Positions 16,457 through 39,225 of a DNA stretch of 64,000 bases are shown one piece after another. This DNA is from an uncultured Gemmatimonadaceae bacterium. GTDB taxonomy: Bacteria; Gemmatimonadota; Gemmatimonadetes; Gemmatimonadales; Gemmatimonadaceae. A model generated the notes under the pieces. The model did not search any database, was not told the origin of the DNA, and saw nothing but the letters and a program-made list of their open reading frames with translations. Where the stretch lies: contig CAVVTZ010000009.1 in assembly GCA_963751275.1 (NCBI GenBank), positions 576,001-640,000 of the forward strand, in the 5' to 3' direction. How positions within the stretch are numbered: the first letter of the stretch is position 1; the number at the start of each line of letters is the position of its first letter. The position numbers were made by a program, and so were the translations under genes.

Positions 16457-17080
16457 ATGACCCTCGGCGCCGGCGAGATCATCGCCCTCGTCGGCAAGAA
16501 TGGGAGCGGGAAGAGCACGCTGGTTCGCGCGATCGCGACGGCGCTCCGTCCCACCAAGGGCACGATCCGCGTCTATGGCAACGACACGCGCGCCGATCCC
16601 GGCGCGGTGCGCGAGACCTGCGCGATCGTCGGCCACGCCACCGGCGTGTACGAGGATCTCACGGTCATCGAGAACCTCCGCTTCGCGTGCAGGATGGCGG
16701 GCGAACCGCACGACGACGCGCGCCTCCTTGCCGTGCTCGAACGCGTGAACCTCGCGCACGAAGCGAACGCGCGCGGCCGCGAGCTCTCGGCCGGCCAGCA
16801 GCGCCGCATCGCGCTCTCGCGCGTGTTGCTGCGCCCGGTGCGGCTGCTGCTGCTCGATGAGCCGTACACGAGCTTCGACGATGATGGCGTCGCGAACGTG
16901 AACGACATGCTGGTGGATCTGCGCGCGCGCGGCGGCTCGGCCATCGTGATCACGCACGAGATGGAGCGTGTGCGCGGGATCATCGATCGCACCGTGCGCC
17001 TCGACGCCGGCCTCGTCTTCGAGCCCTCGCTCACCCCCACCGGCGCGATGCCGGCCTTCAAGGCGGTGCGCCATGGCTGA
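16457..17080 (+). CDS. ccmA: heme exporter ATP-binding protein CcmA (homology extends upstream to about 16391; true start uncertain)
   Basis: GKNGSGKST, LSAGQQRR, LLDEPYT; first gene of the ccm operon. Confidence 0.85.
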   Translation: MTLGAGEIIALVGKNGSGKSTLVRAIATALRPTKGTIRVYGNDTRADPGAVRETCAIVGHATGVYEDLTVIENLRFACRMAGEPHDDARLLAVLERVNLAHEANARGRELSAGQQRRIALSRVLLRPVRLLLLDEPYTSFDDDGVANVNDMLVDLRARGGSAIVITHEMERVRGIIDRTVRLDAGLVFEPSLTPTGAMPAFKAVRHG

Positions 17081-17768
17081 GCGCGTTTGGGCGCGCGAGT
17101 TCTCGCGGATGGGCGCGGTGGCCTGGAAGGACATGGCGGTGGAGCGCCGCACGAAGGCCAATTTCAATTCGGTGGTCTTCTTCGCCGTGCTCACGCTGCT
17201 GCTCTTCGGCTTCGCGCTGGGCGCCGACACCGACGCGCTCAAGGCGGCGAGCGCCGGCGTGCTTTGGCTGACGGTGCTCTTCTCCGGCGTGCTCGTGTTC
17301 AACCGGTCGTACCAGACCGAGCTCGAGACGGGCGCCCTCGAGATCCTACTATTATATCCCGGCGAGCGCTGGGCGATCTTCGCCGGCAAGCTCCTCGCGA
17401 ACCTCGCCTTCGTGGTGCTCGTGGAGATCGTGATCCTGCCGGTGGCGGTGGTGCTGTACCACATGCCGCTCGGCCGCGCGCCGTTCGCGGTGGCCGGCGT
17501 GATGCTGCTCGGCACCTTCGGGTTCGTCACGCTCGGCACGTTCTACGCGGCGATGGCGAGCCGCCTCCGCTCGCGCGAAGTGCTGCTGCCGCTGTTGCTC
17601 TTCCCCATGCTGGTGCCGGTGTTGATCGCGGCCGTGCAGTCCACGGCGGCGTATCTGAACGGCGATGCGATGGGTGACAGTGCCACCTGGGTCCGTTTGC
17701 TGATCCTCTTTGATGCCATCTTCCTCGTCGCCGCACTGCTGGCGTTCGAGCACGTGATCGAGGGCTAA
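17073..17768 (+). CDS. ccmB: heme exporter permease CcmB
   Basis: six hydrophobic segments, LLPLLLFPMLVPVLI motif. Confidence 0.9.
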   Translation: MAERVWAREFSRMGAVAWKDMAVERRTKANFNSVVFFAVLTLLLFGFALGADTDALKAASAGVLWLTVLFSGVLVFNRSYQTELETGALEILLLYPGERWAIFAGKLLANLAFVVLVEIVILPVAVVLYHMPLGRAPFAVAGVMLLGTFGFVTLGTFYAAMASRLRSREVLLPLLLFPMLVPVLIAAVQSTAAYLNGDAMGDSATWVRLLILFDAIFLVAALLAFEHVIEG

Positions 17769-17770
17769 CG

Positions 17771-18481
17771 ATGACCGATGTGAATACCGGACCGGCGGCG
17801 GTGTCCCGCGGGAAGATGTTCGCGGCGGGCGCGGCGACGCTGGTGATCCTCGCCGCCACGCAGACGTGGGCGATCATGAACTCGCCGCCCGACCGTGACA
17901 TGGGGAACCTGCAGAAGATCATGTACGTGCACGTGCCGAGCGCGTGGAGCTTCTTCATCGCGTTCTTCGTGGTGCTGGTGGCGAGCGTGATGTACCTCGC
18001 GACGCGCGAGGAGAAATACGACCTGATCGCCGCGAGCGCCGCCGAGGCGGGCGCGCTCTTGACCGCGTTGGCGCTGCTCACGGGATCGATCTGGGGGCGG
18101 GAGACGTGGGGCGCGTGGTGGACGTGGGACGCGCGGCTCACGAGCACCGCGATCCTTTTGCTCATCTACATCGGGTACCTTTCGCTGCGGGCCGCGACGG
18201 AGGATCCGGAGCGGCGCGCGCGGTGGAGCGCGGCGGTGGGGATCCTGGGCGCGATCAACGTGCCGATCGTGTACATGTCCGTGCGCTGGTGGCGCACGTT
18301 GCATCAAGTGCAATCGAGCCCGAGCACCGTGGCGGGTTCATACGTCGCCGGCTTGCGGATCAATGCGGTGGCGATGCTGCTGGTCACCGTGTGGTTCATC
18401 GTGGCGCGCTACCGCGCCGCGGTGATCGAGCGCGCCGGCGCGGAGCTGGCGGAGAATGCGGCCCTGGGCGGGAGAGCGTGA
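17771..18481 (+). CDS. ccmC: heme exporter / cytochrome c biogenesis protein CcmC
   Basis: YVHVP, WWD motif GSIWGRETWGAWWTWDARLT, WWRTLHQ. Confidence 0.93.
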   Translation: MTDVNTGPAAVSRGKMFAAGAATLVILAATQTWAIMNSPPDRDMGNLQKIMYVHVPSAWSFFIAFFVVLVASVMYLATREEKYDLIAASAAEAGALLTALALLTGSIWGRETWGAWWTWDARLTSTAILLLIYIGYLSLRAATEDPERRARWSAAVGILGAINVPIVYMSVRWWRTLHQVQSSPSTVAGSYVAGLRINAVAMLLVTVWFIVARYRAAVIERAGAELAENAALGGRA

Positions 18482-18642
18482 TGCCGACTATCAATGAATG
18501 GAACTACATCATCGCGGCGTACGCGGCCGTGTGGGTGGGATTCATCGTGTACTACATCCGGCTCGCGCGGCTGTCGCGGCGCGCCGAAGAAGCCTATCAC
18601 GCGGCACGCGGGCATTCGGGCTCGCCAGGGAGGGTAGTCTGA
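18481..18642 (+). CDS. ccmD: CcmD-like small membrane protein
   Basis: YIIAAYAAVW TM plus basic tail, between ccmC and ccmE with overlapping codons. Confidence 0.75.
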   Translation: MPTINEWNYIIAAYAAVWVGFIVYYIRLARLSRRAEEAYHAARGHSGSPGRVV

Positions 18643-36701: not shown

Positions 36702-36715
36702 CGGAGAAGGCCACC

Positions 36716-37006
36716 ATGTGCCTCGGCATCCCCGGACGGATCATCGAACTCCATCACGACGGCGACCTCGCGATGGGCATGGTGGATTTCGGCGGCGTGC
36801 GCCGCGACGTCTGCCTCGCGTACGTGCAGGATGAAGTGGACATCGGCGACTACGTGATCGTGCACGTGGGGTTCGCGATCTCGAAGGTGGACGAGGCGGA
36901 GGCGAAGCGCACGTTCGAAGCGCTCGAGGAGATGAGCCAGCTGGATGAGCTGGAGTTCCTGAAGGACGCGATCCCCCCCGGCATGCTCTCGTCGGAGGCG
37001 CGGCAC
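36716..37006 (+). CDS. hypC: HypC chaperone (no stop codon; reads in frame into hypD as given)
   Basis: [24 protein letters not shown]. Confidence 0.9.
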
Positions 37007-38137
37007 ATGAAATACCTCGACGAGTACCGCAACGCGCCGATCGCGCGCGCGCTCGCGAAGGAGATCCGCGCGACGGCTAGTCGCACGTGGACCATGATGG
37101 AGGTCTGCGGCGGGCAGACGCACACGATCGTCAAGCAGGGGCTCGATGAGCTCACCGAGGGCGCGGTGGAGATGGTGCATGGCCCGGGCTGCCCGGTGTG
37201 CGTCACGCCGCTGGAGCAGATCGACCGCGCGGTGCAGCTGGGCGCGACGCCGGGCGTGATCCTCACGAGCTTCGGCGACATGCTGCGCGTGCCCGGCAGC
37301 GAGTGCGACCTGTTCCAGGTGCGCGCGCGCGGCGGGAACGTGCGCATCGTCTATTCGCCGCTCGACGCGCTGGAGTTGGCGATCAAGAACCCGGACAAGC
37401 AGGTCGTGTTCTTCGCCGTGGGCTTCGAGACCACGGCGCCGGCGAATGCGATGGCGGTGTTCCGCGCGCGCGAACTCGGCGTCAAGAACTTCTCCGTGCT
37501 CGTATCGCACGTGACCGTGCCGCCCGCGATGCTGGCGATCCTCGGGGCGCCGGACAACCGCGTGCAGGCGTTCCTCGCGGCGGGGCACGTGTGCACCGTG
37601 ATGGGTTACACGGAGTACGAGCCGATCGCCGCGACGTACCACGTGCCGATCATCGTGACGGGCTTCGAGCCGGTGGACCTGCTCGAGGGAATGTTGATGG
37701 CCGTGAAGCAGCTCGAGGCGGGCGACGCGCGCGTGGAGAATCAGTACGTGCGCGCGGTGCGGCGCGATGGCAACGTGCCGGCGCGCACGCTGGTGGAGAG
37801 CGTGTTCGAGCTCACCGACCGGCAGTGGCGCGGCATTGGCGAGATCCCGCTGAGCGGATTGGCGCTGCGCGAGGAGTTCGCGGAGTACGACGCCGTGCGC
37901 AAGTTCGGCCTCGAGAACGTGCGCGCCACCGAGCCGGCCGAGTGCCGCGCGGGGGATGTGCTGCGCGGGAACCTGAAGCCGGTGCAGTGCCCGGCGTTCG
38001 GCAAACTGTGCACGCCCGATCACCCGCTGGGCGCGCCGATGGTGAGCGCCGAGGGCGCGTGCGCGGCGTACTACAACTATGGCCGCTTCCGCGCAGGAGC
38101 GCTGCCAATGGCGGCCGCGGTGGAGGAGGCATCATGA
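37007..38137 (+). CDS. hypD: hydrogenase formation protein HypD
   Basis: [46 protein letters not shown] before ATG. Confidence 0.95.
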
Positions 38138-39225
38138 GCGCCGTGTCGAAGGATGTCGCGCCGGAGGTGGCGCAGCGGCTCGCGGCGGGGCTGTCCTGCC
38201 CGGCGCCGCTCACCGACCGCGACCGGGTGCTGCTGGGTCATGGTTCCGGCGGCAAGCTGAGCGCCGCGCTGGTGCGGGATCGGTTCCTGCCGCACTTCGA
38301 CGGCGCGGAACTGGCGCAGTTGGGCGACGCGGCCGTGGTGAAGGTGAGCGCGGGCTCGCTCGCGATCTCGACCGACTCGTTCGTGGTGAATCCGCTGGAG
38401 TTCCCGGGCGGGAACATCGGGACCCTCGCGGTGAACGGGACGGTGAACGATGTGGCCATGATGGGCGCGCGGCCGCTGTGGATCACCGTGGGGTTCATTC
38501 TGGAGGAAGGGCTGCCGCTGCTGGTGCTGGACCGCGTGATCGCGGAGATGGCACGCGCGGCGAAGGCGGCCGGCGTGTCCATCGTGACGGGCGACACGAA
38601 GGTGGTGGAGCGGGGGAAGGCCGACGGGATGTTCATCAACACGACGGGGGTGGGGATCATCGATCCGAACTTCCGTCCGGCGCCGGACCGCGCGCGCGCG
38701 GGAGATGCGGTGATCGTGAGCGGGAATCTGGGCGTGCACGGCATCACGATCATGGCCGCGCGCGAGGGGATCGCCTTCGATGTGGACCTCGAGAGCGACA
38801 GCGCGGCGCTCGTACCGCTGGTGGACGCATTGCGCGACGCCGTGGGCGTGGAGATCCGCGCGCTGCGCGATCCGACGCGCGGCGGCGTGGCGAGCACGCT
38901 CAACGAGATCGCGGCCGCGAGCAAGGTGGGCGTGGTGCTCGACGAATCGACCCTCCCTGTCCCCATCGCGGTGGCCGGCGCGTGCGAGATGCTCGGACTC
39001 GATTCTCTCTATGTGGCGAACGAGGGGATCTTCGTGGCGATCGTGCCCGACGAACTTGCGTCCGAGGCGCTCGCCGCGCTGCGCGCGCTGCCGCTCGGCG
39101 CGAATGCGCGCCGGATCGGGCACTGCGTGGCGCAGCATCCGGGCATGGTCGTGATGCGCACCGCCATCGGCGGCACGCGCGTGGTGGACATGCTGCCCGG
39201 CGACCAGCTGCCGCGGATCTGCTAG
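38134..39225 (+). CDS. hypE: carbamoyl dehydratase HypE
   Basis: HGSGG, TDSFVV.PL.FPGG, GDTKVV, RDPTRGG, C-terminal PRIC. Confidence 0.96.

Follow-up and report, generated by a model that had tools for sequence, protein, structure and literature searches.

Organization of the gene cluster

The 64,000-nucleotide stretch of DNA analyzed here (hereafter the window; contig CAVVTZ010000009.1 of the uncultured Gemmatimonadaceae bacterium assembly GCA_963751275.1) contains at positions 16457–39225 a gene cluster that encodes three multiheme cytochromes (designated cyt1, cyt2 and cyt3), an outer-membrane beta-barrel and a membrane-bound [NiFe] hydrogenase, and that is considered in this work as a candidate conduit for electrons across the outer membrane. 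The gene order is ccmABCDEFGH, cyt1, cyt2, barrel, cyt3, a tetratricopeptide repeat (TPR) lipoprotein gene, hyaABCD and hypABFCDE; the TPR lipoprotein gene (28664–29119) is the only one of the cluster on the minus strand, all the others being located on the plus strand. The genes were named on the basis of Pfam and NCBIfam scans combined with three-frame reading, and their content and coordinates proved to be as described in a preceding interpretation of the DNA letters alone (the sequence-only reading), including the hydrogenase small, large and cytochrome b subunits with their protease and hypABFCDE, of which the HypA-like gene is short and hypF is split. The heme motif count given there for the three cytochromes, 45 in total (9+20+16), is exact when CxxxxCH is counted along with CxxCH (8+1, 17+3 and 16, respectively). 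The source genome (3.1 Mb in 14 contigs) has a completeness of 83% and a contamination of 0.78%, and the G+C content throughout the window is approximately 66–70%. Scans for promoter and terminator consensus sequences returned sites no more commonly than in shuffled sequence (1 versus 1.9 and 7 versus 7.6, respectively); consequently, operon limits were judged by gene spacing and strand only.

The outer-membrane barrel and its predicted 16-heme partner

The gene at 25650–27113 encodes a protein of 487 amino acids that matched no Pfam or NCBIfam family and was recognized as an outer-membrane beta-barrel of about 22–24 strands from its AlphaFold2 model and from Foldseek searches. The model, built on a 30-sequence alignment (mean predicted local distance difference test score, pLDDT, 81.3; predicted template modeling score, pTM, 0.74), is all-beta after the signal peptide and displays 23 long strand elements. 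At least 357 chains of the Protein Data Bank (PDB) were matched at an expectation value (E) of 0.001 or lower, and the matches listed were all outer-membrane barrels, the best of them being the 24-strand FimD usher pores (E 1.2e-10, template modeling score, TM, 0.44), with MtrB (6r2q_B) at rank 13 (E 2.7e-8, TM 0.41/0.32). The barrel gene shares an ATGA overlap with either neighbor: the cyt2 stop overlaps the barrel start at 25650–25653, and the barrel stop overlaps the cyt3 start at 27110–27113. The beta-barrel coupled between two cytochromes, with which the proposal of a conduit would stand or fall, is thus borne out by the overlaps on both sides, by the all-beta model and by the structural matches. 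Among the conserved residues of the barrel, C69 and C76 are nearly invariant, and P299, W307, F310 and P312 are invariant within the stretch 299–313.

The few named relatives among 40 database matches of the barrel belong to Gemmatimonadaceae and Gemmatimonadales. The 30 clusters nearest to it in the protein atlas share no Pfam family, the nearest named ones being generic porins, and the commonest phylum in the three best clusters is Gemmatimonadota. Barrel relatives are encoded at 439 of the 461 pattern-matched stretches (one genome per species) and, with the source genome included, in 69 of the 128 genera of the sampled phylum. The locus counts given throughout rest on the best 80 loci with barrel relatives, the denominators being the loci with enough DNA; 78 of these 80 come from Gemmatimonadota lineages, mostly from Gemmatimonadaceae, and two are labeled only 'bacterium', which agrees with the Gemmatimonadota origin presumed for the window in the sequence-only reading. 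By sequence comparison, the barrel family is one found named only in Gemmatimonadota.

Cyt3 (27110–28642) is a cytochrome with a Sec export signal and 16 CxxCH motifs; in 68 of 68 loci its gene immediately follows that of the barrel. In an alignment of 45 sequences every one of these motifs is invariant, along with 16 further His residues, so that bis-His ligation is possible for every heme of the protein. Cyt3 has 30.2 residues per heme and cyt2 has 25.8; a value of about 33, as in MtrA, is given as a mark of wire-like cytochromes by He et al. (2017, PMC5566968).

A model of the porin together with a cytochrome had been suggested as a check of the conduit, and it was obtained for barrel residues 24–487 and cyt3 residues 27–510, both supplied as alignments. 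The interaction prediction score from aligned errors (ipSAE) amounted to 0.75, 0.75 and 0.76 in three runs versus 0.00 for the best of 3 controls; in the benchmark of this score, which is a rough guide for self-made alignments, 116 of 157 solved complexes attained this mark, as did 2 of 215 mismatched pairs. The runs share at least 64% of their contacts, with a partner pLDDT of at least 73. On the barrel side, the contacts are distributed over its whole circumference (residues 30 to 469), and on the cyt3 side they fall almost only within residues 345–498, which carry hemes 11–16; such a pattern, encircling the barrel and confined to the C-terminal third of cyt3, is expected of a lumen-threaded cytochrome. 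The most confident contacts connect the barrel stretch 299–313, its most conserved one, with cyt3 residues 446–465. In this model hemes 11–16 of cyt3 are predicted to reside inside the barrel lumen, with hemes 1–10 left in the periplasm.

The 20-heme quinol-dehydrogenase-like cytochrome

Cyt2 (23803–25653) is a membrane-anchored cytochrome with 17 CxxCH and 3 CxxxxCH motifs, built of two N-terminal helices, an NrfH-like head, 11 hemes, a linker and 9 further hemes. The hydrophobic segments (residues 41–61 and 76–105) are conserved and separated by a basic loop, and the linker is rich in Pro, Ala and Ser and very variable in length among relatives. The anchor matched PF03264 (NapC/NirT) with 26.3 bits at a cut-off of 24.1, over model positions 7–73 of 174 only, and this is the sole match to PF03264 above the cut-off in the genome. 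Together with the first hemes, the anchor also matched the NrfH chain 2j7a_C (E 6.3e-7). The first heme is bound by CVSCHVM, i.e., by a CxxCHxM motif, the Met of which is nearly invariant in 26 aligned sequences and which we take to mark the quinol-site heme of NrfH. Against the NrfH model TIGR03153 cyt2 scored 43.4 bits at a cut-off of 134.2, and therefore it is not an equivalog of NrfH. Considering the head and the anchor, cyt2 presumably functions as a menaquinol dehydrogenase.

We consider it likely that cyt3 and the barrel together make up a conduit across the outer membrane, with cyt2 wiring it to quinol.

The OcwA/OmhA-related lipoprotein

Cyt1 (22209–23687) is a lipoprotein with 8 CxxCH motifs and 1 CxxxxCH motif, the lipobox (LLGC) Cys being invariant in 41 sequences. 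Compared with the PDB, the cyt1 family profile matched OmhA (6qvm_A, E 3.8e-19), an undecaheme S-layer cytochrome from Carboxydothermus ferrireducens, as well as OcwA (6i5b_A, E 5e-16) from Thermincola potens, and Foldseek placed OcwA first (E 3.3e-6, TM 0.43) and 6qvm third, NrfA-type enzymes appearing only at E above 0.1. The identity in the fold alignments with OcwA and OmhA is 17–19%. Cyt1 has a c554-like N-terminal part (PF13435) and long C-terminal helices. According to PMC6703420, OcwA is the cell-surface terminal reductase in T. potens, a Gram-positive iron reducer, and combines c554-like and NrfA-like modules, and each of its two open (penta-coordinate) hemes is marked by a distal His-His motif. 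Neither a CxxCK motif nor a His-His pair was found in the cyt1 sequence, in which eight non-motif His residues are invariant or nearly so; with nine hemes to be ligated, at most one heme would thus be left without a conserved second His.

Homology and the lipobox suggest that cyt1 may act as a surface terminal reductase. Several facts weigh against this assignment: the structural model of cyt1 is of moderate quality (pLDDT 70) and was built without hemes, the family includes enzymes for soluble substrates (NrfA, HAO, MccA), and neither the lipobox nor the kinship defines the side of the membrane, surface or periplasm, on which the protein is exposed. Besides, OcwA also reduces soluble compounds, as stated in PMC6703420. 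These considerations lead to another explanation, in which cyt2 and cyt1 would constitute an NrfH/NrfA-like reductase for nitrite, hydroxylamine, sulfite or polysulfide, with the barrel and cyt3 serving as an accessory branch or a substrate channel. It is consistent with the adjacency of cyt2, with its NrfH-like head, to a protein from the wider NrfA/HAO/MccA/OcwA fold group, and with the weak matches of the cyt1 profile to cytochrome c554, HAO and octaheme nitrite reductase. Nevertheless, the lack of CxxCK and of the His-His pair, with no more than one heme possibly open, does not fit such an enzyme, and 36 further hemes, the start-stop-coupled barrel and the pairing of barrel and cyt3 in 68 of 68 loci would be left unexplained; we consider a soluble-substrate reductase of this kind very improbable.

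Distribution and conservation of the module

A cyt1 relative is encoded upstream of the barrel in 62 of 67 loci and a cyt2 relative in 47 of 67. The heme counts are largely kept: 8+1 motifs in 56 of 61 open reading frames (ORFs) of cyt1, 20 in 39 of 44 of cyt2 and 16 in 61 of 70 of cyt3, where the exceptions are four ORFs with 18 motifs and five with fewer (among the latter, L004 is cut by a contig end and L006 is frameshifted). Gene layouts were classified for the 66 loci whose upstream DNA extends over 4 kb or more. The layout of the window, cyt1-cyt2-barrel-cyt3, was found at 42 loci, plus 4 without detected cyt1; two tandem copies of cyt1 and no cyt2 characterize 7 loci, the layout cyt1-barrel-cyt3 was seen at 11 loci, and 2 loci fell outside all layouts. 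Both loci inspected of the cyt1-barrel-cyt3 layout (L031 and L062) have another large cytochrome a few kb away, and large cytochromes with an NrfH-like start carry 25 motifs in L031 and 22 in L024, an unclassified locus. NrfH-anchored, cyt2-like ORFs of approximately 670–730 amino acids are located elsewhere in all 5 of the 5 searched genomes with the tandem-cyt1 layout.

A side observation concerns the C-terminal part of cyt2. In five genomes with cyt2 absent from the barrel cluster (G301–G305, loci L011, L014, L018, L030 and L041), its 9-heme module recurs in other proteins of approximately 300, 465 and 670–730 amino acids, which suggests that this part of the protein may be a shuffled, reusable heme-wire module.

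The hydrogenase and its genomic link to the proposed conduit

The gene hyaA (29328–30473) encodes the [NiFe] small subunit (TIGR00391, 462.6 bits versus a cut-off of 179.5) with a twin-arginine translocation (Tat) signal and a hydrophobic segment at residues 334–356. It is followed by hyaB for the large subunit (PF00374, E 3.7e-231, 768.9 bits; longest ORF 30376–32187, with the true start maybe at about 30470), hyaC for the b-type cytochrome subunit, a quinone reductase (32127–32948, start approximate; TIGR02125, 182.1 versus 121.5; PF01292), and hyaD for the maturation endopeptidase (32926–33447; PF01750; TIGR00072, 135.5 versus 47.45). Judging by the Tat-exported small subunit, the C-terminal anchor, the cytochrome b and the protease, the enzyme is a group 1 membrane-bound uptake hydrogenase. 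Hydrogenases of this group reduce quinone via their cytochrome b. The best solved relative of HyaB is the enzyme of Allochromatium vinosum (3myr_B, E 2.2e-230), followed by Salmonella Hyd-5 and Escherichia coli Hyd-1; hyaB is the sole PF00374 match in the genome and belongs to the only [NiFe] hydrogenase found in it.

Two extra cysteines at positions 19 and 120, at the proximal cluster, presumably define the O2 tolerance of group 1d enzymes, Hyd-1 and ReMBH. HyaA possesses Gly and Ser at these positions, and its best solved matches are engineered HoxK/HyaA variants without the extra Cys. Since both cysteines are missing, use of the enzyme under low or no oxygen would fit, and it is not of the oxygen-resistant Hya type assumed for marine Gemmatimonadota by Gong et al. 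(2024, PMC11316326).

The co-occurrence of the barrel and the hydrogenase was estimated in 300 evenly drawn Gemmatimonadota genomes. The barrel was found in 131 and a hydrogenase orthologue in 77 of them; 74 genomes have both, 3 the hydrogenase alone, 57 the barrel alone and 166 neither. In family f1 the barrel occurs in 12 of 14 genomes with the hydrogenase versus 6 of 55 without it, and in family f2 in 54 of 54 versus 34 of 71. Both genes share one contig in 37 genomes, being at most 8 kb apart in 18 and at most 30 kb apart in 32 of them; thus, the cytochrome and hydrogenase blocks, whose separation in relatives would have spoken against a joint function, are linked. The hydrogenase takes at least three placements, its genes being found either downstream on the same strand or upstream, there on the same or the opposite strand; hyaB is present in 14 of the 39 fetched loci with full 10-kb flanks, and all 7 of the 7 loci with the tandem-cyt1 layout, i.e., without cyt2, have hydrogenase or hyp genes adjoining.

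The strength of this linkage is, on the other hand, limited in several respects. The odds ratio for barrel and hydrogenase, about 72, is not corrected for phylogeny; the two genes lie on different contigs in 37 of 74 genomes, so that their distance there is not readable, and on the same contig a distance of 80 kb to 2.4 Mb separates them in 5 of 37. Furthermore, 57 of 131 barrel genomes are devoid of the hydrogenase, and therefore H2 can be at most one of several electron donors; the genome of the window has three heme-copper oxidase loci that could take the electrons, and therefore H2 need not be coupled to the conduit. These same distant pairs and hydrogenase-free genomes would be understandable if the conduit were real and the hydrogenase a mere neighbor, brought there by shared low-oxygen regulation or common descent and having no preferred electron route to it. 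Such a neighborhood is also suggested by the division into two transcription units that flank a divergent gene and would be joined only via the common quinone pool. At the same time, it accounts poorly for the presence of the barrel in 74 of 77 hydrogenase genomes, for the 32 of 37 same-contig pairs within 30 kb, for the linkage in several gene orders and inside both large families, and for the hydrogenase or hyp genes next to all 7 loci without cyt2. Considering both sides, we regard a mere neighborhood as quite unlikely.

Maturation genes and quality of the assembly

The cytochrome c maturation genes precede cyt1 and form a System I set in which all eight genes of ccmABCDEFGH are present, ccmE being frameshifted in the assembly. 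The gene ccmA for the ATP-binding cassette (ABC) ATPase of the heme exporter (16457–17080; PF00005, E 2.6e-30) has an uncertain 5' end: its frame is open from 16307 with no ATG, GTG or TTG before 16457, and the match to the ABC domain starts about 15 bases earlier than this codon. Next come ccmB (17100–17768, start approximate; PF03379, E 9.6e-37, matched from residue 50 of the ORF 16968–17768), ccmC (17771–18481; PF01578, E 3.8e-34) and ccmD (18481–18642), the latter encoding 53 amino acids with one hydrophobic helix and named by its size and position between ccmC and ccmE, with no family scan. The gene ccmE (18642–19095) is read in two frames, PF03100 model positions 2–64 being matched in one and 62–99 in the next. 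The set is completed by ccmF (19095–21131; PF16327, E 2.2e-69, and PF01578), the thioredoxin-like ccmG (21125–21712, start approximate; PF00578, PF08534) and ccmH (21709–22155; PF03918, E 2.9e-34). Genes of the ccm set lie within 10 kb of the barrel in 23 of the 39 loci with full flanks. A dedication of this system to the conduit was considered and rejected: PF01578 matches throughout the genome, which is 83% complete, are restricted to ccmC and ccmF of the window, and no second system for c-type maturation turned up in the genome, so that the ccm set of the window serves all c-type cytochromes.

The hydrogenase maturation genes follow hyaD. The HypA-like gene (33440–33700, 86 amino acids) matched PF01155 (E 8.8e-8) at model positions 2–70 of 112 only, and its product is devoid of the N-terminal Met-His-Glu start and of the C-terminal zinc-binding cysteines, both of which are typical of HypA; it may be a shortened variant or the result of another frameshift. 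The gene hypB (33681–34370) scored 255.4 bits with TIGR00073 at a cut-off of 121.2. The domains of hypF (34400–36701, start approximate) are split over two frames, with the acylphosphatase and zf-HYPF domains and the first half of Sua5 in 33962–35428 and the second half of Sua5, HypF_C and HypF_C_2 in 35319–36701. Within 36716–38137, hypC (about 36716–36960; PF01455 at residues 256–325 of the ORF 35951–38137) and hypD (about 37000–38137; PF01924 at residues 365–711 of the same ORF) were recognized, and hypE occupies 38140–39225 (start approximate; PF00586 and PF02769 at residues 377–647 of the ORF 37198–39225). The ccm and hyp genes would mature the cytochromes and the hydrogenase, respectively.

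Both ccmE and hypF are split across two frames by one extra base in the assembly (near 18925–18930 and at about 35284, respectively). The base at 18930 is missing in the contigs of relatives in 3 of the 3 sequencing runs with cover (short-read; soil or rhizosphere), and the base at 35284 in 2 of 3, the contigs compared being those of relatives about 90–99% alike, i.e., of other strains than the source. The dnaE and 2-oxoacid dehydrogenase genes of the window (e.g., 4957–7659 and 44810–48698) are likewise in pieces or mixed frames, and L006, the locus of the nearest relative, is broken by frameshifts in the same way. Since contigs of relatives are free of the extra bases, and since other genes and L006 are also split, assembly indels are the likelier cause, and the frameshifts of ccmE and hypF are probably indel errors of long-read assembly. 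True pseudogenes were considered and are less likely, given that contigs of relatives are one base shorter at both sites.

The TPR lipoprotein (28664–29119, minus strand), located between cyt3 and hyaA, comprises 151 amino acids and matched PF13414 and PF07719; its signal has the lipobox LAAAAC. Just beyond cyt3, at 2.5–5.5 kb downstream from the start of the barrel gene, 30 of 60 loci encode a homologue, 18 on the same strand and 12 on the opposite one. As a guess, it may help to assemble or anchor the conduit complex. The flanks of the whole cluster are of a housekeeping nature, with metG, accA, dnaE and uvrD on one side and lipoate/2-oxoacid dehydrogenase genes, peptidases and opp on the other; a lone small gene of the Fic/DOC family (525–920; PF02661, E 8.2e-16) stands beside metG.

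Other multiheme loci in the genome

Two more loci with multiheme cytochromes were noticed in the source genome. A second porin-cytochrome-like cluster (G000:C7:419392-424606, minus strand) encodes secreted cytochromes with 23 and 19 hemes and then a secreted protein of 561 amino acids, which belongs to no Pfam family and has the C-terminus ...SYRF, of a type common in outer-membrane barrels; after it come three other secreted proteins, none of them above a Pfam cut-off, one having a weak Ig-like (Big_1) match below it. No paralogue of the window barrel was found in this cluster. At G000:C12:56885-59514 (minus strand), a membrane-anchored 8-heme cytochrome lies beside a small TPR protein and one of the DUF2490 family (PF10677); beyond the window and the former cluster, it is the sole ORF of the genome with at least three CxxCH motifs.

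Comparison with known porin-cytochrome systems

A barrel gene adjoining a gene for a many-heme cytochrome, the generic mark of porin-cytochrome systems, is present in the window, and the complex is, judging by its gene content, of the Mtr/Pcc kind in logic without being a member of the described families. With MtrCAB of Shewanella oneidensis (6R2Q) it has in common a lipoprotein cytochrome, a many-heme cytochrome that is here predicted to be threaded through a barrel and a quinol dehydrogenase of the NapC/NirT type (CymA in Shewanella), and the complex model places cyt3 in the barrel much as MtrA sits in MtrB. No sequence kinship with MtrA or MtrB was found in Pfam and NCBIfam for either the cytochromes or the barrel, and the structural match to MtrB is one among hundreds of matches to barrels in general. 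The comparison with Mtr family models that had been recommended for the cluster placed the cytochromes far below the cut-offs: with the MtrA/DmsE family (TIGR03508, cut-off 192.2) cyt1 scored 45.8 and cyt2 24.9 bits, which excludes membership, and the MtrC domain model gave 18.6 bits at a cut-off of 30. The barrel is shorter than the MtrB chain (487 versus 649 amino acids), the cytochrome predicted to be threaded carries 16 hemes versus 10 in MtrA, and the quinol dehydrogenase has 20 hemes and is encoded in the cluster, whereas CymA is separate. Cyt2 resembles NrfH, CymA and NapC in having a membrane helix followed by the CxxCHxM first heme and in its PF03264 match, but only the anchor and the first two hemes align, and cyt2 has a second upstream helix and 20 hemes instead of 4.

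The Geobacter Pcc system (OmbB-OmaB-OmcB), compared by description, likewise combines a barrel with two cytochromes, one periplasmic and one a lipoprotein; the model of the Geobacter GSU2203-family decaheme cytochromes gave 34.7 bits at a cut-off of 325. In Geobacter and Shewanella, H2 can drive metal reduction via group 1 hydrogenase and the quinone pool. To our knowledge, the hydrogenase in these organisms is not encoded beside the conduit. Cyt1 shares with OcwA and OmhA the profile and fold kinship and, as in OcwA, nine hemes, the c554-like start and long C-terminal helices; unlike them, it is a lipoprotein of an outer-membrane bacterium, linked to a barrel and devoid of the His-His motifs.

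As described by He et al. (2017, PMC5566968), PCC3 systems are similar in comprising a barrel, a periplasmic cytochrome of about 20 hemes, a second large cytochrome, an inner-membrane quinone-active part and few residues per heme. The same source ascribes to them an inner-membrane protein of five helices that carries two HX13H motifs, a barrel that may reach 42 strands, and an extracellular cytochrome whose heme number has a median of 34. Membership in PCC3, compared by this description, was rejected, as there is no 5-helix HX13H inner-membrane protein in the inventory of 22155–29328; the barrel strand number and the 34-heme extracellular cytochrome of PCC3 are also not those of the cluster. 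The DFE_0461-0465 clusters of Desulfovibrio ferrophilus have genes for NHL beta-propellers and no apparent porin-cytochrome conduit according to PMC9769857, and by this description, that is, owing to their beta-propellers and the lack of a porin, they were rejected as a matching system.

DFE_0461-0465 genes have been widely annotated in marine Gemmatimonadota, as reported by Gong et al. (2024, PMC11316326). The earlier reports found on the phylum are only general, dealing with multiheme proteins, Cyc2, 'DFE' or three MtrABC hits, and CbcL- and ImcH-type homologues have been counted in it (PMC6295460). Neither the module nor its link to the hydrogenase was found described for Gemmatimonadota in the main text of the literature, the supplements of which (Gong et al. 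2024, PMC13264449) may list such clusters; an ability to carry electrons from H2 to acceptors outside the cell is likewise not known to have been described for the phylum, which the sequence-only reading did not know as an established group with extracellular electron transfer. What we consider new is the Gemmatimonadota barrel family, the putative outer cytochrome of the OcwA/OmhA type in an outer-membrane bacterium, the fusion of an NrfH head with a tethered 9-heme module into a 20-heme protein and the regular pairing with the hydrogenase.

Proposed route of electrons

As to the whole chain, we find it somewhat probable that cyt1, cyt2, the barrel and cyt3 form a conduit from menaquinol across the outer membrane that is fed from H2 by the neighboring hydrogenase. 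At the first step, HyaAB would oxidize H2 in the periplasm and HyaC would reduce menaquinone, as can be expected from what is known of the family whose subunits are seen here. The NrfH-like head of cyt2 would then oxidize menaquinol, and the electrons would pass along its 11 hemes and the linker to the 9-heme tail, which the flexible linker would let reach the outer membrane. Hemes 1–10 of cyt3 in the periplasm are predicted to receive the electrons and hemes 11–16 to conduct them through the barrel. Finally, cyt1 would deliver them at the surface to minerals of Fe(III) or Mn(IV), to humic substances or to some other acceptor.

Besides the points on cyt1 and on the hydrogenase linkage given above, this scheme meets the following objections. 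The score of the barrel–cyt3 complex may partly reflect likeness to the solved MtrAB complex. If the frameshifts in ccmE and hypF were real, neither the cytochromes nor the hydrogenase would mature. Sampled words of the window are shared by 20 sequencing runs (at most 0.15 each), and no RNA run was listed among them. The direction of flow is not readable from sequence, and proteins of the NrfH/CymA type can work both ways.

Accordingly, the same conduit may be imagined in reverse, drawing electrons from a partner cell, humics, Fe(II) or reduced minerals and passing them to the quinone pool or towards the oxidases, so that the cluster would represent a 'lithotrophy island' with two alternative donors, H2 and extracellular reductants. 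The three heme-copper oxidase loci of the genome could serve as sinks for such electrons. None of the facts opposed to it is decisive, namely, that the solved structures to which cyt1 is most closely related are those of iron reducers' terminal reductases, that an anoxic acceptor would suit a hydrogenase without the cysteines of O2 tolerance better than a combination with O2, and that, by redox potentials, electrons from Fe(II) would have to move uphill to menaquinone through a protein of the NrfH type. In favor of the reversal, PCC3 clusters with proteins of more than 20 hemes were proposed for Fe(II) oxidizers (PMC5566968), and iron oxidation and reduction are called indistinguishable by such genes in Gemmatimonadota (Gong et al. 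2024, PMC11316326). Altogether, we judge the inward flow to be unlikely.

Returning to the outward conduit fed from H2, the complete chain from H2 to the cell surface claimed in the sequence-only reading holds in part: it gained from the NrfH-like head, the barrel–cyt3 model, the kinship of cyt1 with OcwA and the hydrogenase linkage, while we infer the delivery at the surface and the flow itself only from the components. To call the system self-contained, as was done there, was an overstatement, considering that its ccm genes are the only such system of the genome, that three oxidases are available, that the hydrogenase is a separate unit and that cyt2 is missing from the cluster in 7 loci.

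Implications for Gemmatimonadota

Gemmatimonadota are abundant in soils, have few cultured members and are mostly seen as aerobic heterotrophs. With the barrel present in 96% of the sampled hydrogenase genomes, usually within 30 kb where both share a contig, we put forward, tentatively and with more doubt than confidence, that the phylum has its own lineage-specific conduit with the membrane-bound hydrogenase evolved as its regular partner, and that many of its soil members are H2-driven reducers of iron or manganese minerals or humics when oxygen is gone. The annotation of iron genes in the phylum yields only loose hits of the 'DFE_461-465' type, judging from Gong et al. (2024, PMC11316326); marker genes for soil metatranscriptomes, and a guide for enrichments, could be provided by those of the barrel, of cyt3 and of the 20-heme NrfH fusion. 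If the proposal is true, the module would be a fourth, unrelated way of crossing the outer membrane with hemes, beside Mtr, Pcc and PCC3, and cyt1 would represent the first case of an OcwA-type protein at work on the surface of an outer-membrane bacterium, linking the surface reductases of Gram-positive iron reducers to outer-membrane bacteria. It would also point to an overlooked soil sink of H2 and an overlooked driver of metal cycling, and to an anaerobic lifestyle of Gemmatimonadota based on the oxidation of H2 with mineral or humic acceptors.

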